A stretch of DNA of 23,674 bases from an uncultured candidate division Zixibacteria bacterium. GTDB taxonomy: Bacteria > Zixibacteria > MSB-5A5 > UBA10806. A model generated the notes under the pieces. That model was not told the origin of the DNA. It saw only the letters and a list, made by a program, of their open reading frames with translations, and made no database searches. The DNA lies in NCBI GenBank assembly GCA_963817915.1, contig CAWFQL010000022.1, forward strand, positions 1 to 23,674. Reading direction: 5' to 3'. Each line of letters begins with the position of its first letter. The first letter of the stretch is position 1. Shown here in pieces: positions 1,603 through 20,659 of the stretch. Both the position numbers and the translations under genes were made by a program.

Positions 1603-2856
1603 ATGCGGATTTTTTTAATTTTTCTAGTTTGGGCGCAAGCTTTGATATTTTTATCAAACTCGACAGAAGCGCAAACCTTTGTTGGCGAATGCGAGATTGA
1701 GGGCGCGACAAATATTGGTATGAATAAAAACCCCAATTTTGTCTTTATTTCTGTAGATAGGAATCGAATAGTAGCGGTCGACGTTTCAAACCCTGCAAAT
1801 CCTTTTGTGGCCGATTCGCTTCAATTTAATACTGGAGCCATCGATTATATATTTATTCGCGACAACTCTGCCTATTTGACAGGGATAGCTTCGGATGTAA
1901 ATATTGTTGACATTTCAGATCCTTATGACATGAGATTAATTACCGAATGGCAGCCCGATGGAAACCCCGACCATTGTACCTATGTAAGACACAACATCGC
2001 CTATGTAACTACTTGCTACAGAATGCTGGTTGTTGACGTTACAAATGAATATTATCCCGAAGTAATAAGAACATTTTCTCATTGCGGTGATGGATATGGA
2101 ATTTGCGCAGAAGAAGGCTATCTTTATATAGCGGACATGAATAACGGATTGCAGATTTTTGATATCACAGATGCGGCGGATCCAGTATTATTGTCGTCAA
2201 CTCCAATATGTCAATACGCAACATTTTACTCTTCAGCTTACAATCACCACATTTATTTACCTTCGGCCGATCGCGGTATAACGATAGTCGACGCCTCAGA
2301 TCCATTAAATCCAATAGTGGATATTATAGTTGGAAGCATCAATTACATTTCCAGTACCTATATATTAAATTACTATTTGTTTGTCGTCGGCGCAGGAGAT
2401 CACGAGTTCGAACCGCATGGTCTGTTTATTTATGATATATCGGTGCCGGACGATCCGATGCTTGTTGGATATTATGAGGGATGGTTCTCGGGGGTTTGGG
2501 CCACGGAAGGTTTTGTCTACTTGGTAAGCGGGGGATTAGTAATATTATCGTTTGACGCGACTTCGAATGACCGTGGTGAAGTCCTAATTCCGAATAATAC
2601 AACTGTTTTAACCTCCTACCCCAACCCCTTCAACGCTCAGACCACGATTCGCTACTCGCTACCAGAATCGGGGCCCGTATCGCTCACAATCTACAATATC
2701 CTCGGCCAGAAAGTAGCGACACTGCTTGATGGAGTGCAGGCCGCCGGAGAGCATAGAACAGTATGGGATGCTAATGGTCTACCATCGGGGATATACCTTT
2801 GCAGGCTGCATACAAACGGATATGCAAATTCCGAACAATTATTCCTTATGAAATAA
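1603..2856 (+). CDS. LVIVD-repeat beta-propeller protein with signal peptide and T9SS-type CTD
   Basis: Hydrophobic N-terminus ending TEA-Q, repeats VDVSNPANP / IVDISDP / IFDITDAADP / IYDISVPDDP, and C-terminal SYPNPFNAQTTIRY...FLMK. Confidence 0.9.
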   Translation: MRIFLIFLVWAQALIFLSNSTEAQTFVGECEIEGATNIGMNKNPNFVFISVDRNRIVAVDVSNPANPFVADSLQFNTGAIDYIFIRDNSAYLTGIASDVNIVDISDPYDMRLITEWQPDGNPDHCTYVRHNIAYVTTCYRMLVVDVTNEYYPEVIRTFSHCGDGYGICAEEGYLYIADMNNGLQIFDITDAADPVLLSSTPICQYATFYSSAYNHHIYLPSADRGITIVDASDPLNPIVDIIVGSINYISSTYILNYYLFVVGAGDHEFEPHGLFIYDISVPDDPMLVGYYEGWFSGVWATEGFVYLVSGGLVILSFDATSNDRGEVLIPNNTTVLTSYPNPFNAQTTIRYSLPESGPVSLTIYNILGQKVATLLDGVQAAGEHRTVWDANGLPSGIYLCRLHTNGYANSEQLFLMK

Positions 2857-2901
2857 CTCAACATATTCGGAGTTCATGCCTATTCTCCGATTAAGCAAGG
2901 C

Positions 2902-2932
2902 AGGGGCGCATAACACGCGCCCCTATTTTTTT
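2902..2932 (+). terminator. Rho-independent terminator
   Basis: AGGGGCGC-ataacac-GCGCCCCT followed by A and T7. Confidence 0.8.
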
Positions 2933-2934
2933 AG

Positions 2935-3095
2935 AACCTTCTATGCCAGAAAGTAGCAACATTGCTTGACGGTGTTCAAATAGCGGGGGGCACAGGGCGG
3001 TATGGGATGCCCAAAATCAGCCGTCGGGGGTATATTTTGCAAAGCTGAAATCGGCGCAGCGCAAATCGACAACCCATATGGTGCTGCTAAAGTAA
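2935..3095 (+). pseudogene. Orphan C-terminal part of a CTD, with no start codon in the CTD frame
   Basis: Translates NLLCQKVATLLDGVQIAG/HRAVWDAQNQPSGVYFAKLKSAQRKSTTHMVLLK* if one G is added in the G-run near 2985-2990. Confidence 0.85.
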
Positions 3096-3119
3096 TATTT
3101 GTATCATAACATTTTATAC

Positions 3120-3148
3120 TTGACAAGCCCGTCTATACTAATTATCTT
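3120..3148 (+). promoter_or_regulatory. sigma70-type promoter
   Basis: TTGACA (3120-3125), 17 bp spacer, TATCTT (3143-3148). Both boxes are conserved in the second copy. Confidence 0.75.
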
Positions 3149-3154
3149 AAGATT

Positions 3155-3389
3155 ATAAATTAATAATAGCGATAACGACAGCACTTGATTTAGCATCTTT
3201 TGGATCGCTTGGAATTTTATCTATGAGGATTCCATGCGCTGTCGATTTCAGGAAAATAGCTTTAACCCCAACTGGACTCGTGCCCCCCGCTAACTTCTTG
3301 GGGGGGGGGGCATATACGCGCTCCGCCCATAACGAACCTTCTTGGCTTGTGTGTTAACATTCTTCTCTAAATCTTTAAGGAGGTTCAAG
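3155..3389 (+). ncRNA. Putative structured 5' leader RNA, copy 1 (three-way junction, C6/G11 hairpin, anti-SD helix)
   Basis: Helices 3176-82/3238-44, 3187-93/3200-06, 3210-18/3226-34, 3280-88/3305-13 and 3334-43/3377-86. Differences from copy 2 preserve pairing. The 5' end is inferred from the promoter. Confidence 0.6.
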
Positions 3390-3827
3390 ATGTCTTCCAA
3401 TTCCATTCGTACTTTCAAAATCATTGCACTTCTGATCTTCGTCTTTAGTGCCCAGTTTGTCCTTGCCAATCCGGTCCAAACCATGAGATTATATGCCGCA
3501 GATGACAATGTTCAGGACACAATAATAGCTAGGAGCGGAGTTTTTGACCCCACCGATTCCTACATGACATGGGCAGATACAATTTACTGTGATAATACCT
3601 ACTCCTATTACACAGTCTATTTAGAATATCGCGGTACAAGTATCAGTCATAGCTACCAAATGTCAAGTCTTACGCCGGGGTTAACATATACCGCTGGCGG
3701 CGGTCCTACGTGGGTTGGTCCGAGTACCAGCCATGAATTGGTTATGAGGAAAGATTCAATAGGCAACAAGAATGATCTCAGAAATCTCAGGATGAGAGTC
3801 TACTACAATGCAGGTGGCGCGGATTAA
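3390..3827 (+). CDS. Small secreted protein of unknown function (145 aa)
   Basis: AAGGAGG RBS at 3377-83 and ATG 3390. Sec-type signal MSSNSIRTFKIIALLIFVFSAQFVLA. Shares motifs with 9062..9487. Confidence 0.85.
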   Translation: MSSNSIRTFKIIALLIFVFSAQFVLANPVQTMRLYAADDNVQDTIIARSGVFDPTDSYMTWADTIYCDNTYSYYTVYLEYRGTSISHSYQMSSLTPGLTYTAGGGPTWVGPSTSHELVMRKDSIGNKNDLRNLRMRVYYNAGGAD

Positions 3828-3854
3828 TTCCCAAAACGAATAGGGTCAAATATC

Positions 3855-3882
3855 AAGGTCCCCGATAGAATTCGGGGACCTT
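3855..3882 (+). other. Intergenic stem-loop without a U-tract
   Basis: AAGGTCCCCGA-tagaat-TCGGGGACCTT, a perfect 11 bp stem. Confidence 0.75.
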
Positions 3883-3923
3883 AGTTAGATAATTGAATAA
3901 AGTGAGAATAAGGAAGATAACCT

Positions 3924-6251
3924 ATGCAAAATACAAAAAATCTGTTTACGATTATTGCGTGTTTTATTGTGCTTATTTTCCATGCTTCACAGGTTCAAAG
4001 CGGTGAAAATGTATGGACGACTTCCGGCCCGGAAGGCGCAAGCGTTAAAACAATAGCAATAAATCCTATGGACAACAATGTTATTTATATAGGAACCATT
4101 CAAAACGGAATTTATAAAAGTATTAACGGGGGAGAAAACTGGACTCATTTAGAAATAAGTACAAATCTTCAATCTACTACAATGCGAAAGATCGTGGTTC
4201 ATCCCTTTGGGCCCGACACTATTTATGGGGCCACTGCCGGCGGAATATTTAAGAGTACTGATGCTGGATTATCATGGAATAATATTTCACCTCCGGGAAG
4301 AGAAAATCAGGAATACAGAGCCGTTGTCTTAGATCCATTACGGCCCTATATTATTATTACAGGGGGAGTCTGGGACCGCTGGAAATCAACAAATTCAGGG
4401 CAAAGCTGGACAGAATTTTCCATAGATCCGGAAGGTGGCATGGATCATGAAATCGACGGTTTAGCAATCAACCCTCAAAACCCTAATACTATGTTTCTTG
4501 TTACCCCTGATTCTCAATACGGGAGAGGAATTTATAAGAGTACGGATGAAGGCATTACCTGGTTTAGTACTCAAAATAATTGCGATAGCTCCGGCGTTGG
4601 CCGCGATGTTGAAATAGATCCAATCGACACTAACATTATTTATTTTGCACGAGATGACGGCTTTAGGGTATCTGGCGGGCGATTTCTATCAAAAACAACA
4701 GATAACGGGGTAACCTGGTTTGATATTTCTCCTAATGGCCTTAGTAAGTGGACGGTATTAGATATCTGTATTTCTCCAATAGATCACAATACTGTTTTTA
4801 TCGGCACCGAAACTGATGGGATATTTAAAAGCACTGATGGCGGACTTAATTGGTCTCCTCAAAATGATAGCTTGAGAGCATTAAGTGTATTCTCAATAGA
4901 AATTGCACCTTTGACAGGCACTGTTTTCTCCGGTTTTATTATGGATGGGATTTATAAGTCAGCCAATGGCGGTATTTTCTGGAGAAGAATCAGTCAGAAT
5001 ATTTTTGCGGCTGATTTAATGGATCTTGCGATTATGCCAGATTCAACTGGTGTATTTGCGGTCGGTCAAATTGGGTGTTATTTTTTGCCATCCGGAGGTG
5101 AATCATGGAGGTATATAAATACCGGAATTCCCCCTGGGAATAAACCGGGGTCAATAGAAATGGATGAACATGATCCGTCTGATATTTTTATTAATACTTT
5201 CTCGCCCATTTATCCTCCCCTGTCACCAAATGGTGTGTATCTATCCACCGATCGAGGTCTAACCTGGAGATTTTCAAACAACGGCCTTCCGGTAGACCAG
5301 GGCTATTTCGGTATAGGAATATCCTATCTTGATAATTCAAGGCAAATATACACTGGTACATTTTTTGAATTCGAGACAGCAGGCGTTTATTACTCTTATG
5401 ATATTGGGGAAACCTGGACAAAATGTCAAGGCGGATTGCCCAATCTCTCGCTTTACCCGATTATTGTTGCACCAAACAATTCCAATATCGTATTAACAGC
5501 TGATGGCGATAATAGAGTATATCTATCTACCGATAGAGGCAATACATGGCAGGAAACAACGCCCCTTCCCAGAATTGATTATGAATTTGTATTTGATATT
5601 AATATTGACCCTACAGATTATAATCATATTTTTGCTTCGTGCCATTATGGTGGACTATTTGAATCGCCCGATTTGGGCCAAAGTTGGGATAACATTAATA
5701 ATGATCTACCGCTTTATCCTTCAATTCCCAAAATATACGGCCCTGCAATAAATCCTTCTAATCCGCAAAATATGTTTGTTTTCTCAAATCATAATGGTGT
5801 GTTTCAAACTCACGATGGAGGAACCCATTGGGAATCTTTTAACAATGGTTTCGATATGAGCGCCAGCTCTGGCAATATATATTTTGCTCCGAATGATACA
5901 ACAAGTTTATATATTATTACGCCAAGCCGCTCCGTCTGGTCCATCCATCGCACATTGGACGGAGTTAATGATGATGACTCGACCTTGCCCTCCTCTCTTT
6001 CCCTTTCCTCCTACCCCAACCCCTTTAATGCGCAAACCACAATAAGCTATTCACTCGCCAAGTCCGGCCCGGTAACACTCACCATCTACAACATCCTCGG
6101 CCAGAAAGTAGCTGTACTATTTGACGGCGCGCAGACTGCGGGAGAGCATAGAACGGTATGGGATGCCCAAAATCAGCCGTCGGGAATTTATTTCTACAGG
6201 CTGAATTCCGCCCAATCCAGCAATTCCCGAACGATGCTGTTGCTCAAATAG
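3924..6251 (+). CDS. VPS10/BNR (Asp-box) repeat beta-propeller protein with signal peptide and T9SS-type CTD
   Basis: Many SxDxGxxW Asp-boxes (KSINGGENW, KSTDAGLSW, KSTDEGITW, STDRGLTW) and C-terminal SYPNPFNAQTTISY...MLLLK. Confidence 0.92.
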   Translation: MQNTKNLFTIIACFIVLIFHASQVQSGENVWTTSGPEGASVKTIAINPMDNNVIYIGTIQNGIYKSINGGENWTHLEISTNLQSTTMRKIVVHPFGPDTIYGATAGGIFKSTDAGLSWNNISPPGRENQEYRAVVLDPLRPYIIITGGVWDRWKSTNSGQSWTEFSIDPEGGMDHEIDGLAINPQNPNTMFLVTPDSQYGRGIYKSTDEGITWFSTQNNCDSSGVGRDVEIDPIDTNIIYFARDDGFRVSGGRFLSKTTDNGVTWFDISPNGLSKWTVLDICISPIDHNTVFIGTETDGIFKSTDGGLNWSPQNDSLRALSVFSIEIAPLTGTVFSGFIMDGIYKSANGGIFWRRISQNIFAADLMDLAIMPDSTGVFAVGQIGCYFLPSGGESWRYINTGIPPGNKPGSIEMDEHDPSDIFINTFSPIYPPLSPNGVYLSTDRGLTWRFSNNGLPVDQGYFGIGISYLDNSRQIYTGTFFEFETAGVYYSYDIGETWTKCQGGLPNLSLYPIIVAPNNSNIVLTADGDNRVYLSTDRGNTWQETTPLPRIDYEFVFDINIDPTDYNHIFASCHYGGLFESPDLGQSWDNINNDLPLYPSIPKIYGPAINPSNPQNMFVFSNHNGVFQTHDGGTHWESFNNGFDMSASSGNIYFAPNDTTSLYIITPSRSVWSIHRTLDGVNDDDSTLPSSLSLSSYPNPFNAQTTISYSLAKSGPVTLTIYNILGQKVAVLFDGAQTAGEHRTVWDAQNQPSGIYFYRLNSAQSSNSRTMLLLK
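6000..6149 (+). repeat. 150 bp exact direct repeat inside the CTD, partner 11616-11765
   Basis: tccctttcctcctaccccaac...gggagagcat reads identically in both propeller genes. Confidence 0.9.
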
Positions 6252-6421
6252 TAACACCATTAAGAGTATTATATATATCAACTTAGCCCTATCGTGCCGG
6301 GGCGAGGTTGCATTGCGGGTGATCGTCACTAATCAATTATAAAAAGATGGCGATATTATATTATAGATTTGTCCTTTTTTTATGTTTGGTAAAAATGAGA
6401 ATTTTATAGCGGAGGTTTGAA

Positions 6422-8524
6422 ATGAAATCGATTTATATGCTTTTTTTCCTGATTGCCGCGCTGGCAGTCGTAACTGTCGCAGAGGAAGTTAGATATGTTA
6501 ATTCGATTCTCTGGACACAGGCCGCCGATGTCGAGGTGGTCGACAATTACGCTTTCTGCGCCTTTTCCAAGGGGTTGGCCGTATTCGATATTACCGATCC
6601 CAACCCGCCAATCTGCCAGGCCAGGCTCCTTCTTGGGGGAGTGCCCCTTAGCATGGATATCGAGGGGAATTACGCCTACATAGGCGATCAATCTTATTTC
6701 CTCAGGATTATCGATATCACCGAGCCGCTCGCCCCCCAGATCGCCGGAACGTGCAGCACTCCCGGTTTAGCCTACGATATTCATATACGCGGTAATTACG
6801 CCTATATGGCCTGCGCCACCGAGGGTTTTCAGGTCGCTGATATCAGCAACCCAGACAATCCAGCGATTGTCGGCGGTGTTACCACATCGGGTAATGCCCA
6901 GGGCATTTTTGTTTACGGAGATTATGCCTTCATGGCTGATGATACGATGGGGTTGGAGATTTTCAATATCGTCAATCCCGCCCAGCCGGTTCTCATTAAC
7001 AGGGTGGATTCGCTCGGCACTGCTTACGACGTTTATGTCAGCGGCGGATATGCCTATGTCGCCAGCGAATACTCGGGACTATGGATTATCAATATAACCG
7101 ACCCCGAAAATGCAGTGATTGTTACGCGCGACTATTCCGCGGTCTATGCCAACGAAGTTCAGGTTACGGGGTCGTACGCCTATGTCGGCTCCAGGATTCA
7201 GGGGATGCAGATCATCGATATCACCGATCCTGCCAATCCCTTTTTGGCAGGTACATCCAGGACACCGTATTCGGTCAATGCCCTTTGTATCGACGGCTCT
7301 TACGCCTATATCAACGATGAATATCACGGACTGTATGTGGCCGATATCAGCAACCCCAACGATCCGGTTTTAATTGGAAGCTATAACACCAGCGGCAAGG
7401 TCAACGATGTTTGCCTGTCTGGTTCCTATGCTTATATAAGTACATATCTCTGGGGCATGCAAATTTATGATCTGGTGGATCCGGCCAATCCCAATTTACT
7501 GGGAAGTTACCCCTACGGCGGTATGGCTAACGCTATTGACGTCTCCGGTTCTTACGCTTATCTGGTAGCATCGAATTATGAATTGAAAATTCTCAGTGTC
7601 AGCGATCCCACTGACCCACAGCTAATCAGCGGTTATGGCGATCAATATTCCACCAATATCGATGTTGCCGGAAACTACGCCTATGTAGTAGGGCTTGAAT
7701 ACGGCCTGGATATTTTCGATATCTCAAACCCGCTCGGCCCATCCCGTGTCGGCAACTATAATCCGACTCCCGATATTTACGATGTCGCCGCTTCCGGTTC
7801 TTATGCCTATCTGGCAGAATGGGATACCGGCCTGGAAATTCTGGATATCAGCGATCCCGCAAACCCGATATCGGTGGGAATTTGCAATACCCCCGGTTAC
7901 GCTCAAAGCGTAGTTGTGGCCGGCTCCTATGCCTATGTCGCCGATAGCTACAGCGGCTTGAATATTATCGATATCAGCGATCCCGCCAATCCCATATCGG
8001 TAGGGCAAGTCGGCGTAATAGGAAGCGCTTATGATTTAACCGTTGTGGGCGATGTTGCCTATGTAGCGGAAATGACAAACGGTATTCGCGTTGTCGATAT
8101 CAGCAATCCTGCGGCGCCGACTCTGATCGCGTTTTATCCGACTACCGGTCTGCTTCCTGCGGTTGATGTTATGTTGCCATATATTTACATGGCCGATATG
8201 TATTCTTTGATGATATTCCATTTCGATCCCACGAGCGTTGACAACGAAGCCAACGCCCAACCGGAGGCGTTTACCCTTTCGTCATATCCCAACCCTTTCA
8301 ATGCTCAAACCACAATCAATTATACTTTGCGCGATGACGGTCCCGTCACGCTCTCTATCTATAATCTCCTCGGCCAGAAAGTGGCGACATTGTTCGACGG
8401 AGTGCAGACAGCCGGAGAGCATAGAACGGTATGGGATGCCAATGGTCTACCATCGGGGATATACCTTTGCAGGTTACATACAAATGGATATGCAAATTCC
8501 GAACAATTGTTTTTGATGAAATAA
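6422..8524 (+). CDS. Large LVIVD-repeat protein with signal peptide and T9SS-type CTD
   Basis: GGAGG RBS and about 13 regular ~42 aa repeats (V.V.GSYAYVA....GL.IIDISDPANP). The last 37 aa are identical to the 1603..2856 protein. Confidence 0.92.
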   Translation: MKSIYMLFFLIAALAVVTVAEEVRYVNSILWTQAADVEVVDNYAFCAFSKGLAVFDITDPNPPICQARLLLGGVPLSMDIEGNYAYIGDQSYFLRIIDITEPLAPQIAGTCSTPGLAYDIHIRGNYAYMACATEGFQVADISNPDNPAIVGGVTTSGNAQGIFVYGDYAFMADDTMGLEIFNIVNPAQPVLINRVDSLGTAYDVYVSGGYAYVASEYSGLWIINITDPENAVIVTRDYSAVYANEVQVTGSYAYVGSRIQGMQIIDITDPANPFLAGTSRTPYSVNALCIDGSYAYINDEYHGLYVADISNPNDPVLIGSYNTSGKVNDVCLSGSYAYISTYLWGMQIYDLVDPANPNLLGSYPYGGMANAIDVSGSYAYLVASNYELKILSVSDPTDPQLISGYGDQYSTNIDVAGNYAYVVGLEYGLDIFDISNPLGPSRVGNYNPTPDIYDVAASGSYAYLAEWDTGLEILDISDPANPISVGICNTPGYAQSVVVAGSYAYVADSYSGLNIIDISDPANPISVGQVGVIGSAYDLTVVGDVAYVAEMTNGIRVVDISNPAAPTLIAFYPTTGLLPAVDVMLPYIYMADMYSLMIFHFDPTSVDNEANAQPEAFTLSSYPNPFNAQTTINYTLRDDGPVTLSIYNLLGQKVATLFDGVQTAGEHRTVWDANGLPSGIYLCRLHTNGYANSEQLFLMK

Positions 8525-8567
8525 CTGATCTTATTCGGAGTTCATTCCAGTTCTCCAATTTAATAAG

Positions 8568-8600
8568 ACAGGGGCGCATAACACGCGCCCCTGTTTTTTT
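8568..8600 (+). terminator. Rho-independent terminator
   Basis: ACAGGGGCGC-ataacac-GCGCCCCTGT running into T7. Confidence 0.8.
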
Positions 8601-8602
8601 AG

Positions 8603-8765
8603 AACCTTCTATGCCAGAAAGTAGCAACATTGCTTGACGGTGTTCAAACAGCGGGGGGGCACAGGGTGGTGTGGGGATGCCCAAAAGCCGCCGTCGGGGG
8701 TCTATTTCGCAAAGCTGAAATCGGCGCAGCACAAATCGACAACCCAAATGGCGTTGTTAAAGTAA
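8603..8765 (+). pseudogene. Orphan C-terminal part of a CTD, copy 2
   Basis: Translates NLLCQKVATLLDGVQTAGGHRVVW/DAQKPPSGVYFAKLKSAQHKSTTQMALLK* if one G is removed near 8673-8676. Confidence 0.85.
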
Positions 8766-8790
8766 TTTTTGTATCAAAACATTTTTATAC

Positions 8791-8819
8791 TTGACAAGCC
8801 CGTCTATGCTAATTATCTT
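8791..8819 (+). promoter_or_regulatory. sigma70-type promoter, copy 2
   Basis: TTGACA (8791-96), 17 bp spacer, TATCTT (8814-19). Confidence 0.75.
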
Positions 8820-8825
8820 AAGATT

Positions 8826-9061
8826 ATAAATTAATAATAGCGATAACGACAGCACTTGATTTAGCATCTTTTGGATCGCTTGGAATTTTACTTTTGGGGA
8901 TTCCGTGCGCTGTCGATTCAGAAAAATAGCTTTAACCCCAACTGGACTCGTGCCCCCCGCTAACTTCTTGGGGGGGGGGGCACATACGTGCGCCGCCCGA
9001 TAAACTCCTTATAGTTGTACTTCACTTGTAACACCTTAAAACGATTTTAAAGGAGTTGTTT
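8826..9061 (+). ncRNA. Putative structured 5' leader RNA, copy 2
   Basis: Same helices as copy 1 (8847-53/8909-15, 8881-89/8897-8905, 8950-58/8975-83). Anti-SD AACTCCTT (9003-10) pairs with AAGGAGTT (9050-57). Confidence 0.6.
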
Positions 9062-9487
9062 ATGTACAAGAAATTAATTTTCCTTTCTATTATGGCAATC
9101 GGACTGTTTTTCTTGGCTGGTGTACAAACATCTAATGCCTGCGGAAATCAATATTCTATTTCGGCCCAAGATGACAGCTATTTACCAGTGGAACAGAACT
9201 ATGATCCCTGCGACTACTGGGTATCTTGGACCTTTTCATTGAAACGAAATTCGGCTGATAATGGTACTCATGTAGTTGTTAGGTTTGAGGTTATAGGAGC
9301 GAATGTGCTAGAAGATTTCGATTCTCTCGATTTCGATCATTGGGAGACAAAGACTCGTACCGGCGAAGCGTATGTTGGGCCTAGCACTTCAAATACAATT
9401 AAAATATCTAAACTTTCAGGAGTGGGGACAAAATTCACTAACCTGTCAAATTCTGTAAATTATTACAACGATAACGGTAGTAAGTAA
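9062..9487 (+). CDS. Small secreted protein of unknown function (141 aa), distant paralog of 3390..3827
   Basis: AAGGAG RBS and ATG 9062. Signal MYKKLIFLSIMAIGLFFLAGVQTSNA. Shared VGPSTS and YYN motifs. Confidence 0.85.
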   Translation: MYKKLIFLSIMAIGLFFLAGVQTSNACGNQYSISAQDDSYLPVEQNYDPCDYWVSWTFSLKRNSADNGTHVVVRFEVIGANVLEDFDSLDFDHWETKTRTGEAYVGPSTSNTIKISKLSGVGTKFTNLSNSVNYYNDNGSK

Positions 9488-9505
9488 GGGAATTAATATT
9501 CACGA

Positions 9506-9537
9506 TGAATTCCCCGAGCTCAAACTCGGGGAATTCA
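9506..9537 (+). other. Intergenic stem-loop without a U-tract
   Basis: TGAATTCCCCGAG-ctcaaa-CTCGGGGAATTCA, a perfect 13 bp stem. Confidence 0.75.
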
Positions 9538-9554
9538 CCTAAAAGGAAAGCAAA

Positions 9555-11867
9555 ATGTCAACGATTAAAATGATAGCGTATAAAGTTAGTATCATGCTTT
9601 TTATGTCGCTTTACGGTGTGCCCGCTAATTCACAGGATAATACTTGGGTAACCAGCGGTCCACCTGGTGGCAGCATAATGACAATCGCTATCAACCCATT
9701 AAATAACAATATCATATATGTTGGAACCGTTCAAAAAGGAATATTCAAGACTACCGACGGCGGAATATCATGGCGGCATCTTGATTCGAACATACTCTAT
9801 ATGAATCAGAGGGTAATTGCTATTCATCCTACGGCCCCAGACACGGTATATGCTGCCACAAATGGAGGCATTTTTAAGAGCAGTGACGCCGGTGAAACAT
9901 GGCGATTACTCTATCCTCCTTCGGGGCACGATGCTGAATATAGGGCTTTTATCATTAATCCCCAAAACCCAAGCATGCTTTTTGCTGGTGGCCTTCCAGA
10001 ATGGAAATCCACGGATAGCGGCGAATCATGGTTTCAGCTAAATATATGGCCCCGCGTAGGCATAGATGCCTTTGCCGTTAATTATCGCAATCCAAATGAA
10101 ATGTATTTCGCCAGCGGTTCGGTTCTTTATGGTTTAGGAGTATGGAAAAGTGATGACATGGGCGAAACATGGTTTTCAATCCAAAACAACATCGATTCCA
10201 GTCGCAGCACCGGAACAGATGTAGCAATCGATCCTACTGATAGTAATATCTTATATTTTAGTAGAAACTCCGTTAACTCCGGAAATAATAAATGTTTGTT
10301 CAAGTCAACGGACGGCGGACAATATTGGATTGATATTTCTCCACAACAATTAACGGAATTTAATATTAAAAAAATCGCAATATTTCCACATAACAATCAG
10401 ATTATCTTTGTATGTACTTTTACCGATGGCGTGCTTAAAAGCACCGATGGCGGCGTAGCTTGGGTGCCAAAAAATCAAGGACTCGATGGCTTACGCACCA
10501 AAACAATAGTAATTGATTCGATATCAGACATAATTTACCTCGGTACATATATCAATGGGCTCTACAAATCGCTTGATAACGGCGAAACATGGCAGAGTAT
10601 TAGCGAAAATATTACAGCATCATACTGCAATACAATCGCTTTTAAGCCGGATGATCCATCTCCAATATATGCGTCAGCCACCAATGGAATTTTTAAATCC
10701 GCGGACATCGGGCAGTCCTGGGAGCGTATAAACATTGGAATTCCGATTCAAAATATCCCCGGCGGCGGCATTATATTTGACAATCTTAACAGCAACAATA
10801 TATTTCTAACCAGTAGTCAGACGGAATTCCCCGATGTTCCTGCCGGAATCTACCGCTCGACCGATTCCGGTGTTAGTTGGGAATTTCTCATTAACGGAAT
10901 AGCGCTGGAAATCGGACTAAACGATATAGCGATATCCTGCCTCTCCACTGGAGAAAAGCGTCTTTTTACAATAGGGCAAGGAGTATACTTTTCGGATGAT
11001 ATGGGCGATTCCTGGAATCTCTGCGACGGTTTTTCACCTAATGGCCCTATTCACACAGTAATCGATCTTGCCCCCAATAATCCCAATATAATTGCGGTTG
11101 GCGAGGGTTGGGGCGAATGGGATCAGCGAATTTTTATCTCGACAGATCGCGGTGAATCATGGAATCAGACAACTCCTTTGCCATCAAGACATTTTCCCGG
11201 AATAAACAGCTTAAAATTTGATCCTCAAAATGCTAATCATATTCTGGTTGCCAGCGACAATGTAGGGCTTTTCGAGACTTATGATTTTGGTACAAGCTGG
11301 GCCGATTTGACAAATCAGGTGCCTCTCTTACCGCAATATAGGGAGTACCCGGCAATTTCCGGTATTGCCATCAATCCCAACAATCCTATGAATTACTTCA
11401 TCCAACCTCCTTTTCAGGGGGTCTATCAGAGCCATAACGCCGGTCTTACATGGGAGCCATTTAATAACGGACTCGATACGGCTTTTGCCTATGGCAAAAT
11501 ATATTTTATGCCTGATGATACTACACGCTTATTTGTTACCGGCCATGCGGTATCTACCATCCATCGCACTCTCGACGGTGTCGACGATGACGCGCCAACA
11601 TTGCCTGCTATCCTCTCCCTTTCCTCCTACCCCAACCCCTTTAATGCGCAAACCACAATAAGCTATTCACTCGCCAAGTCCGGCCCGGTAACACTCACCA
11701 TCTACAACATCCTCGGCCAGAAAGTAGCTGTACTATTTGACGGCGCGCAGACTGCGGGAGAGCATTCGCTGGTCTGGGATGCCCAAAATCAGCCGTCGGG
11801 GGTGTATTTTTACCGCTTACAGGGCGGAAACTTCTCGAAATCGAGCCAGATGGTCCTCCTGCGATAG
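9555..11867 (+). CDS. VPS10/BNR (Asp-box) repeat beta-propeller protein with T9SS-type CTD, paralog of 3924..6251
   Basis: Same blade organisation (W.TSGP.G.S..TIAINP..NN.IY.GT.Q.GI.K...), multiple Asp-boxes and a CTD. Confidence 0.92.
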   Translation: MSTIKMIAYKVSIMLFMSLYGVPANSQDNTWVTSGPPGGSIMTIAINPLNNNIIYVGTVQKGIFKTTDGGISWRHLDSNILYMNQRVIAIHPTAPDTVYAATNGGIFKSSDAGETWRLLYPPSGHDAEYRAFIINPQNPSMLFAGGLPEWKSTDSGESWFQLNIWPRVGIDAFAVNYRNPNEMYFASGSVLYGLGVWKSDDMGETWFSIQNNIDSSRSTGTDVAIDPTDSNILYFSRNSVNSGNNKCLFKSTDGGQYWIDISPQQLTEFNIKKIAIFPHNNQIIFVCTFTDGVLKSTDGGVAWVPKNQGLDGLRTKTIVIDSISDIIYLGTYINGLYKSLDNGETWQSISENITASYCNTIAFKPDDPSPIYASATNGIFKSADIGQSWERINIGIPIQNIPGGGIIFDNLNSNNIFLTSSQTEFPDVPAGIYRSTDSGVSWEFLINGIALEIGLNDIAISCLSTGEKRLFTIGQGVYFSDDMGDSWNLCDGFSPNGPIHTVIDLAPNNPNIIAVGEGWGEWDQRIFISTDRGESWNQTTPLPSRHFPGINSLKFDPQNANHILVASDNVGLFETYDFGTSWADLTNQVPLLPQYREYPAISGIAINPNNPMNYFIQPPFQGVYQSHNAGLTWEPFNNGLDTAFAYGKIYFMPDDTTRLFVTGHAVSTIHRTLDGVDDDAPTLPAILSLSSYPNPFNAQTTISYSLAKSGPVTLTIYNILGQKVAVLFDGAQTAGEHSLVWDAQNQPSGVYFYRLQGGNFSKSSQMVLLR
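11616..11765 (+). repeat. 150 bp exact direct repeat, partner 6000-6149
   Basis: Identical to 6000-6149 on reading. Confidence 0.9.
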
Positions 11868-12092: not shown

Positions 12093-13504
12093 ATGTCCCT
12101 AACCACGCTATTGATTTTGATCGGCGCAGTCGTTTTAGTCGTGGTCTTGATTCTGGTCGTTCTGGCCAAACAATACCGCAAGGTCGGCCCCAACGAGGTC
12201 CTTATCGTCTCGGGTGGCGGCAAACGGACAATCACCGATCCCGATGGCACCAAGCATCTGGTCGGCTATAGAATGAGAATCGGCGGCGGCGCTCTCGTTC
12301 TCCCGTTCGTAGAATCATATCAAGTCTTGCCTCTCGATGTCTACACTCTCGACCTACAGGTCCCCGATGTTCTGACGGCTCATGGTATCCAGATAGCCGC
12401 ACAGGGACAGGCCCAGGTCAAAATCGCCAGCGACGAGAGCTCGATCCGCATGGCATCCGAGCAGTTTCTCGGACGTGGCGGCGAAGGCATCAAGGATGTC
12501 GCCGGACAAATACTCGAGGGTCACATGAGAGCCGCATTGGGCAGCATGACTGTCGAGCAGCTTTACCAGGAGCGCGGCGTGTTTGCCGAAAAGGTTCGGC
12601 AATCAGCTACGGGCGATTTCGTTCGCATGGGATTGCAGATACTATCGTTCTCTTTGAAAGATTTCTCAGATAAACAGGGATATATCGAAGCTCTCGGCAA
12701 GCCGCGTATCGCGCAGGCTCGCGGAGAGGCCGCAGTCGCCGAGGCCGAGGCCGAGCGCGATGCCACGGTCAAAGCCGCGGTTGCACGCAAAGAATCTGAT
12801 ATAGCCAAGTTCAAAGCCGAGGCTGAAATCGCCGAGGCCAACCGCGATTACGAACTCAAGCGCGCTGAATATTCATCTATGGTGAATCAGAAAAAGGCTC
12901 AGGCCGATCTCTCCTATGAAATCGAGCGCCAGAAAATGAATCAGTCGCTAAAGAAAGAAGAATACGCCGTCAAGCTGGTAGAAAAAGAGAATGCCATCAA
13001 GATCGAGGAGAAAGAAATTATCCGTAAGGAAAAAAAAAAAAGAACTCGAATCGACCGTGATGGTAAACAGGCGGATGCCCGTAAATACCAGATTATCTCC
13101 GAAACCGACGCCAACGCATACAAGCTGGCCGAGGAAGCCAAGGGAAGGCTGCCGGTATCAGGCTCTACGGTACCTCCGAGGCCGAGGCCATGAAAGCCAA
13201 AGCTGCGGCCTACGCCGAATACAATGAAGCCGCCATTTACCAGATGATGATCTCGGTTCTGCCCGAGTAGCCAGAGCCGTATCCGAGCCTCTCTCCAAGG
13301 TTGATAAAATCATCATGATCGATTCCGGGCAACGGTGGCTCCGGCGCTTCCAAGATCACCAAGCAGGTGACCGAGGTTCTGGCTCAGCTTCCGACAGTGG
13401 TGGAATCGCTTTCCGGTGTCGATCTCAACAAGATGTTGGAGAAGTTCACCAAATCGGGTGATAAGCCGGCGAATCCGCAGCCTAAAGACGGTGACAAGAA
13501 GTAG
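12093..13504 (+). CDS. Flotillin family SPFH (Band 7) protein, with several frameshifts after ~13030
   Basis: N-terminal TM helix, YRKVGPNEVLIVSG, ILEGHMRAALGSMTVE and an AEA-rich coiled coil. The typical flotillin C-terminus (KAAAYAEYNEAA...EPLSKVDKIIMID...LSGVDL) lies in shifted frames and ends at TAG 13502-04. Confidence 0.88.
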
Positions 13505-13546
13505 GCGGTCCCGCGGCACCTTTAATAGAAACCAAGGGAAGACTAC

Positions 13547-15886
13547 ATGTTAGCAGATAGATAGACAACGTATCGGTGAATCGCCGACTCTTAAGATCTC
13601 GGCTAAGGCAACTGCCATGAAGGCCGAGGGCCTTGACGTTATCGATCTCTCGTTGGGTGAGCCTGATTTTCCAACTCCTGAGAATATTCGTCAGGCAGGC
13701 AAGAAAGCGATTGACCAGAACTTTACAAAATATACCGCCAATAACGGCATCATGCCGCTCAGAAAGGCGATCTGCCGCAAGCTCAAGAGGAAAACGGTGT
13801 CGATTACGAACCGGATGAAATCATAGTATCGTCGGGTGCCAAAAACTGTCTCTATAATCTCTGTGTTGCCCTCTTTAACAAAGGCGATGAGGCTATCATC
13901 CCGGCGCCATACTGGGTAAGCTATCCGGCCGATGGTGGAACTGGCAAAGGTGTTCCGGTTGTCGTACAGACCAAAGAAGAAAACGGATTCCGCATCACCC
14001 CCAAAGAGCTTTCGGCCGCAATTTCGCCATCGACAAAGGCCCTGTTCCTTAATAATCCCTGCAATCCGACAGGCGGAGCCTATACAAAAGACGAGCTTCT
14101 CGAAATCGCCAAGATAGTAGTCGACGAAGGTATCGTTGTCATCTCGGATGAAATCTACGAGAAACTCATTTACGATGGTTTCAACTTCACTTGCTTCGCA
14201 TCGCTGGGAAAGAAAATCAAAGAGCAGACTATAACCATCAACGGCATGTCCAAAGCTTACTCGATGACAGGTTGGCGTCTCGGTTACGCGGCCGGGCCGA
14301 AAGAGATTATCATGGGGATGTCGAAGGTGCAGTCGCATAACACATCCAACGCCAGTTCCATTTCACAAATGGTGGCGTGCCGCTGCCCCCTACCGGTCCG
14401 CAGCATGAAATTCGAAGGATGCAAAACGAATTCCAAATTCGCCGCAATTACATGATAGACCGTCTACGCTCGATTCCGGGAGTCTCCTGCTACGAGCCGC
14501 GGGGAGCGTTCTATCTTTTCCCGAATATCAGCGCCTATTTCAAGAAGGAGTTCGAGGGCACACAGATTCGCAACTCGTATGGTATGGCGTACTATCTCCT
14601 GAAACAAGCGCACGTGGCGCTCGTACCGGGTGAGGCGTTCGGCACCGAGGGATTTATCAGATTGTCGTATGCCACCTCGATGGAGAATATCGTCAAGGCG
14701 ATGGATCGTATCACAAAGGCCCTGGCCAAGCTCGAGCCGACTCGTCAATCGAAAATGATCTCGCTCAACAATACTGTCACGCAAAAGAAAGATTTCGTTG
14801 AAACCGAGGTTCATGTGGGACCGGAACTGCGCGATGCTCTGGTGGCCGAGGCCGATTGTTACCTCTTAGAGAATAAGGAATATTACGAGTGGAACGCAAC
14901 ATACTTGGCGTGATAATACAGCTTCGCACCAACCTGCCGCCATTTCTATGATTTCTGGATGGAGAACTGGTATCCGGGCCAACTCGAGAGCGATCTCGAA
15001 CCGCATGGCGTTATCTACGCGGTCGGCTCGATTCCTGGACGAGAAGCCCGCGCCTACTATAGCTCGGAAACCAAGACGGCGGTCTTCTTCAAATCGGCTT
15101 ATTACGGGCAACTTCGCTCGCTTGCAATCGGAATGGCCGATGATGACGTCGCGGCTTTCCAACACCTACTCCGTACGCGGTTTGGGTCTCGATTTTGGCG
15201 GTAACGGTGTCATGCTGATTGCGCCGAAAGGAACAGGCAAGGCGGGGGATTTTCGCCAACCTGCTGCGTCATCCGAAATCGAAACTGCTTACCGACGATA
15301 TCGCTTTTGTGCGCTTCAACGCCAAAGAGGCTATCGCCGACGCGCCGGAACGCAAGCTTTACATGCAGACTAATTTTGTTGAGAAATTCCCCGACTTGGC
15401 GCCGCTTTTCGATAAATCGAAATGCGCGATGTTGTCACCAGCCGCGACGAGTGTGTCAACGGCCCGTGCCAGCGCTTGGATAACTGCCGCTTAGACCGCG
15501 GAGCCCCGTTTTGCTACGAGGCCACGGGCGAATCGCGCGCCATGCTCGATCCCTACTGGATCGACGGCAGCGCCGAGCGTACCAAGCGGACATCGCTAAA
15601 ACATATCCTGCTTTTGAAGAACGATCCTATCAGCCCGATCATCTCTCAGCCATCGGTTGAGGAGGCGATTCGCTTCTGCGAGGAGGGCTTGTCGCAATCG
15701 GGGCCGATGCGAAGCGAGCCGTTCTTCAATCCGCATTTGTTGGTTAACTCCGGCGATAGAATCGAAGCCCGCAAACGCTTCTATGAGAAACTCTTCGGGT
15801 TCGCCAAACCGTATTTCATCAATGTCGGCGGCACGGCCCCCAAGGAGGATATCCAGAAGCAGATCAACAAGATTGTGGGGATCTGA
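13547..15886 (+). CDS. PLP-dependent class I/II (aspartate-type) aminotransferase apparently fused to an HprK/PEPCK-like P-loop domain, with many frameshifts
   Basis: Stitched frames give [38 protein letters not shown] (PLP Lys at 14252) and RLSYATS. The frame continues without a stop into a second domain containing APKGTGK and LLTDD. Confidence 0.75.
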
Positions 15887-16771: not shown

Positions 16772-17992
16772 TTACCTATGGTATGGGCCCCAGCTGGGAG
16801 AATAATCGGCTGTTTGGTTGTTGGTTATATTGCGCTGGTCGGAGCCATCGGTATTCATTACGTAGATTTCGGATTCGTTGTCGCCTGGTAAGTAGGATAC
16901 AAAAGCTATCCTGCTGTCATCGGGCGACCAGCACGGCGATACTCCGCTCTGTTCGGAATTCTGAATATTATGGATATCAGACCCATCGGAGTTCATTACA
17001 AAAATTTGCGGGATATTCGATTCGGGTAGATAACGTGCAAATGCTATCCGGGAGCAATCATGCGACCAGGCCGGTTCAAAATCGTAATAGGAGTTGGTGG
17101 TAATCTGCCGCAAATTGGAGCCATCCGAATTTATAGAATAAATAGCATAGCCGGCGCCGTCTGTGCTGTCGCTTGAAAATACGAACTGGTCCTGCATCGA
17201 CCACGATATCTTATCGCTCTCCCAATTAGGGATAATATTACCGGTTATCTGGTGAGGGTTTTCCCCGTTCGCGTCGGCCACCCAGATTGCGACATGAAAG
17301 ACCTCGTTGCCGCCATCCACCACATAAGCTATGCGACTACCATCTGGAGACCAAACCGGCAAATGGCCGTAAATATCGCCATATGTAACTTGAATACGTT
17401 CGGTACCGTCATGATTCATCGCATACATAAGGTCATTTTCGCGGTCAAAAACTATTTTGGAACCATCATTTGACAGCACCGGATTAAAATCGCCGGGATC
17501 CAGCGGATTTGAAATGATATGCGTGTTTGAACCATCCGGATTCATAATGAAAATTTGACGGTTTCCGTCTATGTAAGATACAAATGCGATCTGTTCCGGC
17601 CCCTCCATTGTAGTAAAGCTCCATATCGGCGATGATGTCTCGCTATTATGCTCATCGCGCGCAATTACTTTCCAATAATAGGTCATATAAGTTTCCAGTT
17701 CGGGAACGCTATATACTGTGTCAATCAGATTCGAATCGATAATAGCCGGTTCAGGTATGGTATCGAGATAGAGATCATATTTGACCGAGTCACCGTCGGG
17801 ATCGACGCATAGCCAGTTAAGCGTAACAAGGGTGTCTATCCCAATTGCCGCGTTTGCCGGTGATGGACTTGACGGAGCGTTCGGCGCATTATTGACGGGC
17901 GGTTGGGTGGTTTTCTTATCGCTGCAGTCGGATATTAGGATGAATCCGCATACCAATATGATAGCCCCTATCGCACGTAAAATCGATGACAT
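16772..17992 (-). CDS. Probable lipoprotein with an Fn3/Ig-like domain and TolB-like PD40 repeats
   Basis: Hydrophobic leader followed by Cys (LISDC-SDKK), DPDGDSVKYDLYL...YYWKVIARD, and repeats PVWSPDGSRIAY / PAWSHDCSRIAF / PCWSPDDSRIAF. Confidence 0.85.
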   Translation of the reverse strand: MSSILRAIGAIILVCGFILISDCSDKKTTQPPVNNAPNAPSSPSPANAAIGIDTLVTLNWLCVDPDGDSVKYDLYLDTIPEPAIIDSNLIDTVYSVPELETYMTYYWKVIARDEHNSETSSPIWSFTTMEGPEQIAFVSYIDGNRQIFIMNPDGSNTHIISNPLDPGDFNPVLSNDGSKIVFDRENDLMYAMNHDGTERIQVTYGDIYGHLPVWSPDGSRIAYVVDGGNEVFHVAIWVADANGENPHQITGNIIPNWESDKISWSMQDQFVFSSDSTDGAGYAIYSINSDGSNLRQITTNSYYDFEPAWSHDCSRIAFARYLPESNIPQIFVMNSDGSDIHNIQNSEQSGVSPCWSPDDSRIAFVSYLPGDNESEIYVMNTDGSDQRNITNNQTADYSPSWGPYHR

Positions 17993-18157
17993 CGCAATTC
18001 TCCTTTGCCAATAACATCATTATTCTTCAACCCGTTGTAGCCGCAATAGATATTGATAATATTATAAATATTGGCAAAAAGGAGCCTTTTGTCAAGTCTT
18101 AATGGTAATAATTGGGATAGAATGAAAGGGTGTAGCGCGAAGCATCAAAATTTAGGC

Positions 18158-18185
18158 GAAGAGGCACCATATATTGTGCCTCTAC
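18158..18185 (-). repeat. GTAG-type REP-like palindrome downstream of rmuC
   Basis: Minus strand reads GTAGAGGCACAATATATGGTGCCTCTTC. Confidence 0.55.
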
Positions 18186-18194
18186 AAAATATCA

Positions 18195-19583
18195 CTATTC
18201 GGAATTGATTTCTCCGGGCTCGGTCTCATCCGTAATCTGGGGAGTGACATCGATAGCGCTGGGGGCTTCAATCTCGGTAGAGGAGGAAGTTCCCATATCG
18301 CGCAAGCGCCTGGCAGACGGAAGTACTCGATGGTCGAGTGAGCCGACCGAGTCATTAAAACTTTCAACCGCCCGCTTTAGGCCGGTGCCTACATTTTTCA
18401 GGTGGCCGACAAATTTTGACAAGCGTTCATGAAGCTCTTTTGATTCATTGATAATCAGGCGTGAATTTTCCGCTACCCGGTGCTGCTGCCATCCATAAGC
18501 CACCGATTTAAGCAATGCGTATAGTGTGAAAGGAGAAGTTATAATTACGTTGTTGGTAACCGCGAAATCGAACAGCCCAATATCATGTTCAAAGGCTGCC
18601 GCAATACAACCGTCACTGGGTATAAACATGATTATTATCTCGGGGGATCTATCAAGTTTTTTCCAATATTCCTTGCTTCCCAGATTTTTTATAGTGCTCC
18701 GCATCGCGACAGTTAATTCCAGGAATTTTTGATGTCGAAAGGCCTCGTCATCCGATTCCATGGCATCGAGATAACTGGTCATAGGAGTTTTGGCGTCTAC
18801 GGGTAGCAGGCCTTTATTGGGAAGATTTACTACCATATCCGGCCTGCCCTCTGCCACAGAAACCTGTTCGGCGAAATCCACATGATCGAGCATATTGGCC
18901 AATTCCACAATACGCCGAAGCTGTTCCTGTCCCCAATTACCCCTGACATTCGGCGATCTTAATGATTGCGCTAATTTGGTAGTGGTAATTTGCAGTTGTC
19001 CCTGGGTATCTGCCAACTGCCTTAATTGCTCTTGCAGGCCGCTATAGGCTCCCTCGCGCTTGGACTCTAAATCTTTCGTTTGCTGGTCGAGCAGGCTTAG
19101 CGTCTTTTCCAGCGGTTCAACCATTTTTTGCAATTCAACTTTATGGGTGCCCCAATCACCGCGAACCTGCTTCAACATACCCTCAAATACTTCTCTGGCG
19201 TTGCTCAGGTATTGCTCGGAGTTATTTTTCAGGACATCGGTTGACAGCGACGAGAACGCATCCTTCATTTGTGCCTGACGTTGCTCGGTCCAGACAGTGA
19301 ATTCGATGTCGGAATCATGTTGTCTCTTGAGCGATGAATTTTCCTGAAGCAGGTTCTCTTTTTCGTGTTGAAGGTCGTCTACCTGCTTTTCAAGCTCCGG
19401 TATCCGCGATGCCACCGCCACTGCCGAGGCCCGCTCCGATATGGCGGCTTTAAACTGATTATCAAGCTCGGCGTTGGCCGCCTGCAATTCCGTTATCCGC
19501 CCTTTGTATATGCGGCTAAATACAATTGATAGGCCTATCGCACCGACTATAAATATCAGGATTAAAATCGATATTTCGTTCAT
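18195..19583 (-). CDS. rmuC: DNA recombination protein RmuC
   Basis: N-terminal TM helix and coiled coil, RGNWGQEQLRRIVELA, RPDMVVNLP...VDAKTP, IMFIPSD, SPFTLYALLKSVAYGWQQ. Confidence 0.93.
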   Translation of the reverse strand: MNEISILILIFIVGAIGLSIVFSRIYKGRITELQAANAELDNQFKAAISERASAVAVASRIPELEKQVDDLQHEKENLLQENSSLKRQHDSDIEFTVWTEQRQAQMKDAFSSLSTDVLKNNSEQYLSNAREVFEGMLKQVRGDWGTHKVELQKMVEPLEKTLSLLDQQTKDLESKREGAYSGLQEQLRQLADTQGQLQITTTKLAQSLRSPNVRGNWGQEQLRRIVELANMLDHVDFAEQVSVAEGRPDMVVNLPNKGLLPVDAKTPMTSYLDAMESDDEAFRHQKFLELTVAMRSTIKNLGSKEYWKKLDRSPEIIIMFIPSDGCIAAAFEHDIGLFDFAVTNNVIITSPFTLYALLKSVAYGWQQHRVAENSRLIINESKELHERLSKFVGHLKNVGTGLKRAVESFNDSVGSLDHRVLPSARRLRDMGTSSSTEIEAPSAIDVTPQITDETEPGEINSE

Positions 19584-19704
19584 GTTAATTGCCTCTGTAA
19601 TCGAAACCGGAACCCCAAAATCGACGACCGAATATTAATTAGATTACTATATCAAACGTCACCATCAAAGCGATTTTTTGAGATCAATGCTGGTAATCAG
19701 CCCG

Positions 19705-19738
19705 AAACAAAAGGCGTCGAGTGCAAACCCGACGCCTT
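19705..19738 (-). terminator. Rho-independent terminator of the SOD gene
   Basis: Stem AAGGCGTCG (19711-19) / CGACGCCTT (19730-38), with a T-rich tail on the minus strand. Confidence 0.7.
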
Positions 19739-19764
19739 ACTAATACTCATTGTTTTATTTATGT

Positions 19765-20364
19765 CTACTTAAGTTGAGCGTTGACAAAATCCCAGTTGAT
19801 CAGATTTTCGATGAAAGCGCCGATAAAGTCCGGCCGACGATTCTGATAATCGAGATAATAAGCATGCTCCCAGACATCGCAGGTAAGCAGAGGTTTCAGA
19901 TTCTGTGTTACCGGATTATCAGCGTTGGCGGTCTTTACGATTTTAAGCTTGCCCGCGGAATCGAGAGCCAGCCAGGCCCAGCCGCTCCCAAACTGAGTGA
20001 CGCCGGCGTTCTTGAATTCATCGACAAATTTTTCATACCCACCCAAATCCGATGCAATCATTTTGGCGATTTCACCTGACGGGGCCTTGCCGCCCCCCTT
20101 TTTCATGCAATTCCAGAAGAAGGAATGATTCCAGGCCTGTGCTACGTTGTTGAAAATGGGTGTCAGCGACGGGTTGCCGGCAGCCTGCTTGATAATTGTT
20201 TCGATATTGTTTTCCTTTTCGAATTGCGAGCCAACCAGGAATTTATTGGCATTATCGACATAGGTCTTGTGATGTTTGCCGTAATGAAATTCCAGCGTAC
20301 GCGCGCTTATAAACGGTTCCAACGCTTCTTTTGGAAATGGCAGTTCGGGGAAAGTGATTTGCAT
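19765..20364 (-). CDS. sodB: Superoxide dismutase, Fe-type signature
   Basis: HYGKHH, FNNVAQAWNHSFFW (AQ rather than Mn-type GG), FGSGWAWL, NADNP, DVWEHAYY, and an AAGGAG RBS. Confidence 0.93.
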   Translation of the reverse strand: MQITFPELPFPKEALEPFISARTLEFHYGKHHKTYVDNANKFLVGSQFEKENNIETIIKQAAGNPSLTPIFNNVAQAWNHSFFWNCMKKGGGKAPSGEIAKMIASDLGGYEKFVDEFKNAGVTQFGSGWAWLALDSAGKLKIVKTANADNPVTQNLKPLLTCDVWEHAYYLDYQNRRPDFIGAFIENLINWDFVNAQLK

Positions 20365-20659
20365 AATGACTCCTTTGAGTAAAAATTAATTATTCGTAAT
20401 TTATACAATCTCAGATTTGTATCGATTGACAATGAAATAATTTCAATTAGGGACAGACTCGTAATTGTTGTTCATAATCTCCCCGCCCATTTCATTGATT
20501 CCCTGTCCCGGCCTGTCCTTGGCAATAAATAAATAAAACAGATATTACAACCTTTAAACGGCGCTCGAATCTTATCGGTTCCGAAAAGGAACCATTAATA
20601 TATTGTTTGGCCACTGTTGTGTGAATATAATTAGGGGGAGATCCTATCCCCCGATTTCT

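Follow-up and report, generated by a model that had tools for sequence, protein, structure and literature searches.

Two neighbouring gene units on contig CAWFQL010000022.1 of an uncultured candidate division Zixibacteria bacterium (GenBank assembly GCA_963817915.1) raise a question: why is the DNA between their genes nearly identical, when the genes themselves have diverged? The window analysed here is this whole contig of 23,674 nucleotides (nt), C22 of a 3.3-Mb genome that we label G000, and the parts of both units lie on its forward strand. An earlier note on this DNA had described two units with a period of 5.6-5.7 kb, which we confirmed (offset about 5.67 kb, both units where it had placed them, with LVIVD-repeat genes of 417 and 700 amino acids). 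It had taken the conserved stretch for a non-coding scaffold, with blocks that serve as homology arms for swapping surface-protein payloads. We found instead that this stretch carries a leader with Arg-x-Pro-Pro (RxPP) codons at its edge. The explanation that we favour, and hold to be moderately probable as a whole, is that ribosomal slippage gates access to these codons, that stalling there turns on a small secreted protein and its beta-propeller, and that the junction between the units owes its near-identity to gene conversion.

Results

The module and its distribution

As judged by comparison among relatives, the conserved unit is a promoter, a leader, a gene for a small secreted jelly-roll protein, a hairpin and a gene for a VPS10 propeller with a tail of the type IX secretion system (T9SS), here called its C-terminal sorting domain (CTD). 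The genome contains three copies, two in the window and one on contig C18. The latter comprises promoter, leader with a run of 12 G, hairpin and VPS10-CTD gene; it has no LVIVD gene, and its DNA is unrelated to that of the window copies.

A profile of the small protein found 61 representatives, two long ones being spurious. Matches occurred in 17 of the 285 genomes of the phylum, 15 of these among the 23 other genomes of the order, and the module is present at 44 places in 16 of the order's 24 genomes, this one included (relatives are labelled G002-G017 and so on, loci L009-L149). A genome-collection scan gave one locus, a repeat of L011 that was dropped; metagenomes contained no match to either the small-protein alignment or the leader pattern of the window, and no conspecific genomes or contigs were recovered from 40 relatives and the metagenome scans. 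A VPS10-type gene lay downstream in all 32 loci examined, with differing upstream neighbours. The LVIVD gene, which the earlier note had counted as a unit member, immediately precedes the two window copies but none of the other loci, and is a flanking gene outside the conserved module.

Arg-x-Pro-Pro codons in the leader

In both window copies a predicted sigma70-like promoter (3120-3148, TTGACA-17-TATCTT, a consensus match; 8791-8819 in copy 2) precedes the leader, and TTGAC is also found upstream of most relatives' leaders. The predicted upstream open reading frames (uORFs) span 3223-3370, with ATG 3223 behind a weak Shine-Dalgarno (SD) sequence, and 8905-9031, with GTG 8905; neither start is secure. 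Each contains a run of 11 G (3300-3310 and 8970-8980) followed by Arg-Ala-Pro-Pro (RAPP) codons (3317-3328 and 8987-8998) in the +1 frame, whose stop in copy 1 is at 3368-3370. Both leaders read His-Ile-Arg-Ala-Pro-Pro at the end of the conserved block, and the three differences between them there are all synonymous, so that the scaffold is not simply non-coding. Identity along the unit is not uniform: it is 94% in the leader up to the RAPP codons, 52% from there (after 3328/8998) to the ATG of the small gene and 44% in the inter-gene hairpin. By this pattern, the 3' edge of the conserved block is set by what appears to be a functional leader peptide motif.

The motif recurs across the family. 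Its strict form, R[AGSDPE]PP, was found at positions -170 to -50 in 27 of the 41 leaders, with the RxPP codons about 60-100 nt upstream of the small gene. In a first count it occurred in 27 of 39 leaders, whereas 200 shuffles gave a mean of 0.7 (maximum 5) and the opposite strand gave 1; one duplicate was then removed and three leaders were added. Left out before counting were the second copy of L052, L069, L062 and L009 (no usable leader), the duplicate L070, the first copy of L050 (run overlapping the motif) and two leaders in which no start was found. As a control, the motif was sought in 607 other leaders from this genome; 4 had it, and three of the four belonged to these modules. Across 24 genomes, the combination of G run and RxPP was no commoner outside the modules than expected by chance, turning up at 6 other places and never in a leader of this kind. 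Apart from the modules, one RAPP leader was found in this genome (C16:314925-316007); it has no run and precedes a secreted outer-membrane-like protein.

Relatives carry RAPP, RGPP, RSPP, REPP and RPPP. When Arg was not presupposed, it stood two residues before Pro-Pro in 31 of 78 cases. Its codons are CGN in 14 and AGR in 13 leaders, the third base after AG being a purine in 13 of 13, and the wobble positions of both Pro codons are free. Since the motif is conserved at codon level with synonymous variation, the constraint acts on the peptide. The residues found between Arg and Pro-Pro (A, G, S, E, P) match those that preserve arrest in ApdA/ApdP mutants (PMC12992588). A reading of the CCGCC motif as an RfaH ops-like or anti-SD element was set aside because the codon pattern is against it. 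The leader peptides are otherwise short and unconserved by eye, and inspection revealed no signal peptide, membrane segment or ligand motif in them.

The same leader also precedes an unrelated pair, a small protein and an FG-GAP propeller with CTD. RxPP was present in 5 of the 6 usable leaders of this second family that had not been picked by motif; three of nine blind matches had been dropped, two at contig ends and one leaderless. In this second module the leader type is followed by a small unnamed secreted protein (120-137 amino acids), a hairpin and the FG-GAP propeller gene (L112, L113, L115-L120, L123, L137-L141, L146, L149). It occurs in 10 of the order's 24 genomes and not in this one, and the small proteins of the two module types show no alignment beyond 21 columns.

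Other arrangements were observed as well. At L013, L057, L058, L061, L065, L066, L124 and L125 the leader is of another type, with a repeated GGGACGCC-like stem, no homopolymer run and, in the six scanned, no Rfam match; it precedes the same small/VPS10 pair in six genomes. In genus g4 (L054, L055, L056), 2-4 small genes in tandem are followed by a regulator-like gene (by eye) and then the VPS10 gene, and several of the tandem small genes have their own in-frame RxPP leader, with possible ATT/TTG starts. Both module types in G017 carry an insertion of one and the same transposase-like gene at the hairpin between their genes (L059:3136-4242; in L116 it follows the second small gene).

A frame offset behind a homopolymer run

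Most leaders contain a run of 6-12 G or C, 0-40 nt upstream of the motif. Of the 35 leaders of both module types with a run and a start, 24 place the motif in the +1 frame, 6 in the -1 frame and 5 in the frame of the start (interim count: 21 of 32 in +1, p 2e-4). The +1 state was the commonest in 11 of 13 genomes and was found in 14 of 18 leaders from assemblies of at least 100 contigs, and 22 of the 35 leaders have no start codon at all in the frame of the motif. The window copies likewise have a best start codon whose frame is not that of the motif. Run-less leaders (G004, G003, G008) have it in frame. One leader lineage, compared in 6 copies, keeps the offset through wobble changes plus the loss of a whole Pro codon in the run, and L149 keeps it though its run is broken by a T.

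Slips to +1 at C runs are known (PMC6335274). We propose that the uORF would be translated from its own start and that a share of the ribosomes would slip +1 on the Gly or Pro codon run, thereby entering the RxPP frame. The gate would thus be translational, and DNA length changes of long runs could reset it too.

Alternatively, the switch might lie in the DNA itself: the run would mutate by slipped-strand mispairing, so that the motif moves in and out of frame cell by cell, and most assemblies would show the OFF phase. We regard such phase variation as possible but rather doubtful. All three frame states do occur, and the genome has very few runs of 10-13, those outside the leaders lying in frameshifted CTD genes; three of its four G runs of at least 11 are in these leaders. 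Moreover, the length of a G repeat in a leader tunes expression in Helicobacter pylori (PMC8295292). A freely mutating repeat should, however, give equal out-of-frame states rather than 24 versus 6, and the same +1 offset accompanies runs of only 6, a T-broken run and a whole-codon change.

Homopolymer calls also have to be considered. Coding G/C runs of 7-8 are in frame in 20 of 20 cases in the genome. Both coding runs of at least 10 are one base too long, like the three leaders, so the G11 of the window itself may be an over-call or an OFF phase. The case for the frame offset rests on relatives with short runs. Long genes of secreted type are broken in frame at runs of G13 (C3:38823), G10 (C16:183736) and G9 (C10:63437), and the first two of these genes carry a CTD; the runs are either contingency loci or over-called homopolymers.

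Output of the leader

Slipped ribosomes would stall at RxPP, about 75 nt before the start of the small gene, and stalling would be the ON state for the small jelly-roll gene and the T9SS-tailed VPS10 propeller gene, through Rho exclusion or opening of the ribosome-binding site. To judge from CruR (PMC9426467) and SecM (PMC7897499), stalling is likely to switch the operon on. The strong hairpin between the two genes (3855-3882, CCCC/GGGG; copy 2 at 9507-9536), whose structure is kept across relatives, would favour more small protein than propeller.

When 29 leaders were folded, only 9 supported the view that a stalled ribosome opens the ribosome-binding site, and 2 gave the opposite result. This makes the output step weak, and makes Rho exclusion as plausible as ribosome-binding-site opening. 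In 13 of the 29 folded leaders, pairing between the motif region and the ribosome-binding site has a probability above 0.3, and many copies lack a start in the motif's frame, as would be expected if the CCNCC bases acted only as RNA, by pairing with the ribosome-binding site or the G run, with RxPP incidental and the offsets noise or assembly error. We consider an RNA-only element improbable: Arg is kept across both codon families, with only purines after AG, both Pro codons vary freely at the wobble position, the changes between the window copies are synonymous, and in-frame, run-less versions of the leader exist. An Rfam scan gave six weak, chance-level matches in the window; neither there nor in 10 loci of relatives did anything reach the gathering score, and we therefore see no known riboswitch there.

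Several further observations speak against a slip-gated arrest leader. The strict motif is missing in 14 of the 41 leaders (including KSPP twice, a stop replacing Arg once, and the other stem-loop leader type). RAPP alone is not enough for stable arrest in ApdA/ApdP (PMC7897499), and the leader peptides, with only about 12-36 residues before the motif, have no upstream sequence in common. As to the offset, 11 of the 35 leaders are not in +1; collapsed by eye to 16 lineages, the states split 9:4:3 (p 0.05), and kin are not independent. Paralogous leaders vary in run length and state (G7, 8, 8, 8, 8, 11 and 12 in G017; C7 versus C9 in G015), which also suits phase variation. A stop lies between run and motif in two copies (L115, L123). 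The start calls rest on a crude SD score, which is weak (7-8) in 8 of the 35, and the start codons of the window copies differ because of a 1-nt indel. Finally, the assembly has indel errors, with an aminotransferase in at least three framed pieces.

The small protein and its propeller

The small secreted proteins (145 amino acids, 3390-3827; 141 amino acids, 9062-9487), which had been thought to be alike only by short motifs, are homologous over their full length (27%, E 2e-5). The propellers (775 amino acids, 3924-6251; 770 amino acids, 9555-11867) are clearly diverged, as previously reported, with 46% identity over their full length. They match PF18962 and TIGR04183, the C-terminal sorting domain of T9SS type A cargo, above cut-off. 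The small protein has a signal-peptide-like N-terminus (by eye), no CTD and no Pfam or NCBIfam family, and a protein atlas gave no usable match. The unit 2 protein was modelled as an eight-stranded jelly roll (predicted local distance difference test, pLDDT, 92.7). Fold searches returned generic jelly rolls only (TNF/C1q/CBM/GOLD-like, Z at most 7.9), and we therefore assign it no function from its fold.

The complex of small protein and propeller was predicted for one cognate pair, that of unit 2, and scored 0.82, compared with 0.01 for the best of 3 controls; the mark set for this score is reached by 116 of 157 solved pairs and by 2 of 215 mismatched pairs. The runs agreed in at least 90% of contacts, with a partner pLDDT of at least 83. 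In the model, contacts come from all round and along the whole length of the propeller, on whose face the small protein sits like a lid. The trees of the two proteins have the deep split and most pairs in common (Mantel r 0.52, 0 of 2000 permutations; the propeller tree is a quick tree), although linkage alone could yield this congruence, at least partly. With that reservation, the suggestion that each small protein is matched to its own propeller was supported. The model predicts that the small protein binds and caps its own propeller.

SprA, PorV and PorU were found over cut-off in the genome. Two points weigh against the proposed pair and its export: the complex may score through likeness to solved propeller complexes, and GldM was not found in the genome in a search that had no positive control.

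Homogenisation of neighbouring units

The junction is nearly identical, as the earlier note had seen: 2614-3332 and 8282-9003 share 88.2% over 723 nt, and the non-genic part 92.0% over 473 nt. Between the units, the LVIVD CTD is 66% identical in its 5' half and 89% in its 3' half. The 3' untranslated region with its intrinsic terminator-like hairpin and T tail (2902-2931; copy 2 at 8570-8599) reaches 84%, a broken, orphan CTD 3' half (2932-3095; copy 2 at 8600-8765) 92%, and the promoter 94%. The notion that spacers are more conserved than genes therefore held for the junction and for the propeller bodies, whose four-fold sites are saturated (23 of 113 identical), but it had missed another block: the CTD ends are not saturated (35 of 48), and the two VPS10 CTDs share about 150 nt at 100% identity. 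The orphan CTD is nearer to VPS10-type CTDs (67-70%) than to LVIVD-type ones (58-65%) and is probably the scar of a conversion or copying event.

Relatives show the same pattern. In tandem pairs of G004, G014 and G017, leader and/or CTD are 87-99.7% identical, small proteins 21-28% and propellers 40-48% (examples: a CTD at 98.8% over 254 nt, a leader at 99.7% over 297 nt, a junction at 94.7% over 449 nt). Other G017 pairs comprise one plain 91% duplicate and one with leaders only 72% alike. Tandem neighbours fall into different clades, and the propeller of window unit 1 is sister to one from G004, not to that of unit 2. Of 17 units, 12 have their nearest CTD within their own genome and 6 their nearest propeller body. 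Among the 141 complete CTDs of the genome, 31 of 89 neighbouring pairs are at least 72% identical versus 43 of 9781 other pairs, and the CTD DNA of neighbours is much more alike than their bodies. In addition, orthologous payloads of G002 and G010 (propellers 87%) have unrelated leaders. On this evidence we conclude that leaders, payloads and CTDs reassort.

Recent gene conversion between neighbours, or copying of a CTD-end/promoter/leader block from one to the other, has probably left the junction nearly identical. Neighbouring bodies would be too diverged to convert, and shared constrained blocks would convert passively; since this suffices, a dedicated cassette system is not needed. Assembler collapse of the junction was ruled out, as the copies are 8% diverged and the pattern recurs in three relatives; for the identical 150-nt CTD tract it may still be the source. 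The proposed cassette array was right in that conserved blocks, homogenised between clades in the three relatives and in this genome, flank payloads of different ancestry, but a dedicated array with non-coding homology arms is unlikely: searches for many junction copies with different payloads found two DNA copies in the genome and 22-nt matches in 2 of 40 relatives, CTD homogenisation among neighbours is genome-wide, one relative's pair is a plain duplicate, and no recombinase was seen in the window.

Flanking genes and assembly quality

The flanking LVIVD-repeat genes, both with T9SS-type CTDs, lie at 1603-2856 and 6422-8524. The first 935 bases of the window hold two further CTD genes with frame breaks, and at 12093-15886 an SPFH gene and the aminotransferase-containing gene are split into several frames, with an A12 run at about 13031; these breaks are probably local assembly errors. 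The stretch 16772-23341 encodes ordinary genes: a TolB-like PD40 lipoprotein, RmuC, an Fe/Mn superoxide dismutase and an acyl-CoA ligase-GNAT fusion.

Discussion

RAPP-type uORFs, frameshifts in leader open reading frames and G repeats in leaders are each already known. The arrest-peptide uORFs with RAPP or RGPP, that is ApdA, ApdP, SecM (RAGP) and those of Streptomyces (PMC12992588, PMC10987492, PMC7897499), have the motif near the uORF end, an invariant Arg, a permissive middle residue and a short distance to a gene for an exported protein, as here. In the leaders described here, by contrast, the motif follows a G/C run and mostly lies in another frame than the start codon, neither a signal peptide nor a conserved sensor was seen, and the genes that follow encode T9SS pairs of small protein and propeller. 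CruR (DUF2946) of Bordetella pertussis is similar in leader position, with a RAPP uORF heading an envelope operon whose downstream genes stalling keeps on (PMC9426467). Unlike CruR, the present leaders lack CXXC and a signal peptide, and their input appears to be frame entry rather than ligand-triggered release.

In the ermC leader with ketolides and in pheL, a uORF frameshift alters ribosome behaviour close to the downstream start, as proposed here, but there the shift is either induced by the drug or incidental, and it does not bring the ribosome to an arrest motif (PMC5009743). In the tlpB leader of Helicobacter pylori, a variable G run in the 5' leader controls an envelope trait; that repeat is read by the small RNA RepG, whereas the present runs, of either G or C, form part of a reading frame (PMC8295292). 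The domain make-up of the propellers (PF15902, PF18962, the latter Por_Secre_tail) is common to known VPS10/BNR propellers; the dedicated small jelly-roll partner, without CTD and of no family found, is what differs.

No description of a slip-gated RAPP leader was found in the literature searched, with subscription journals outside its coverage; the word 'frameshift' does not occur in the main text of PMC12992588 and PMC10987492, nor in 10 of the 11 supplements of the former. We tentatively suggest, as a bolder claim than the explanation of this locus, that these leaders form a new class: an arrest peptide that has no sensor for a ligand or for secretion and whose gate is a programmed +1 slip on Pro/Gly codon runs. 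Frame fidelity (tRNA modification, elongation factor P, charged tRNA supply) might then set module output, and the leader would be a portable block recombined between unrelated payloads.

For CTD-rich genomes, spacers that are more conserved than genes would be explained by conversion on shared constrained blocks. A family of unnamed small proteins gains a likely role as a propeller cap, which could exit the cell on the T9SS tail of its partner. In known RAPP-type leaders the stall is released when a pulling force or a metal is sensed; in the present ones a frameshift seems to decide access to the motif. If so, two separately known control devices would be joined in one 150-nt element that is invisible to gene callers.

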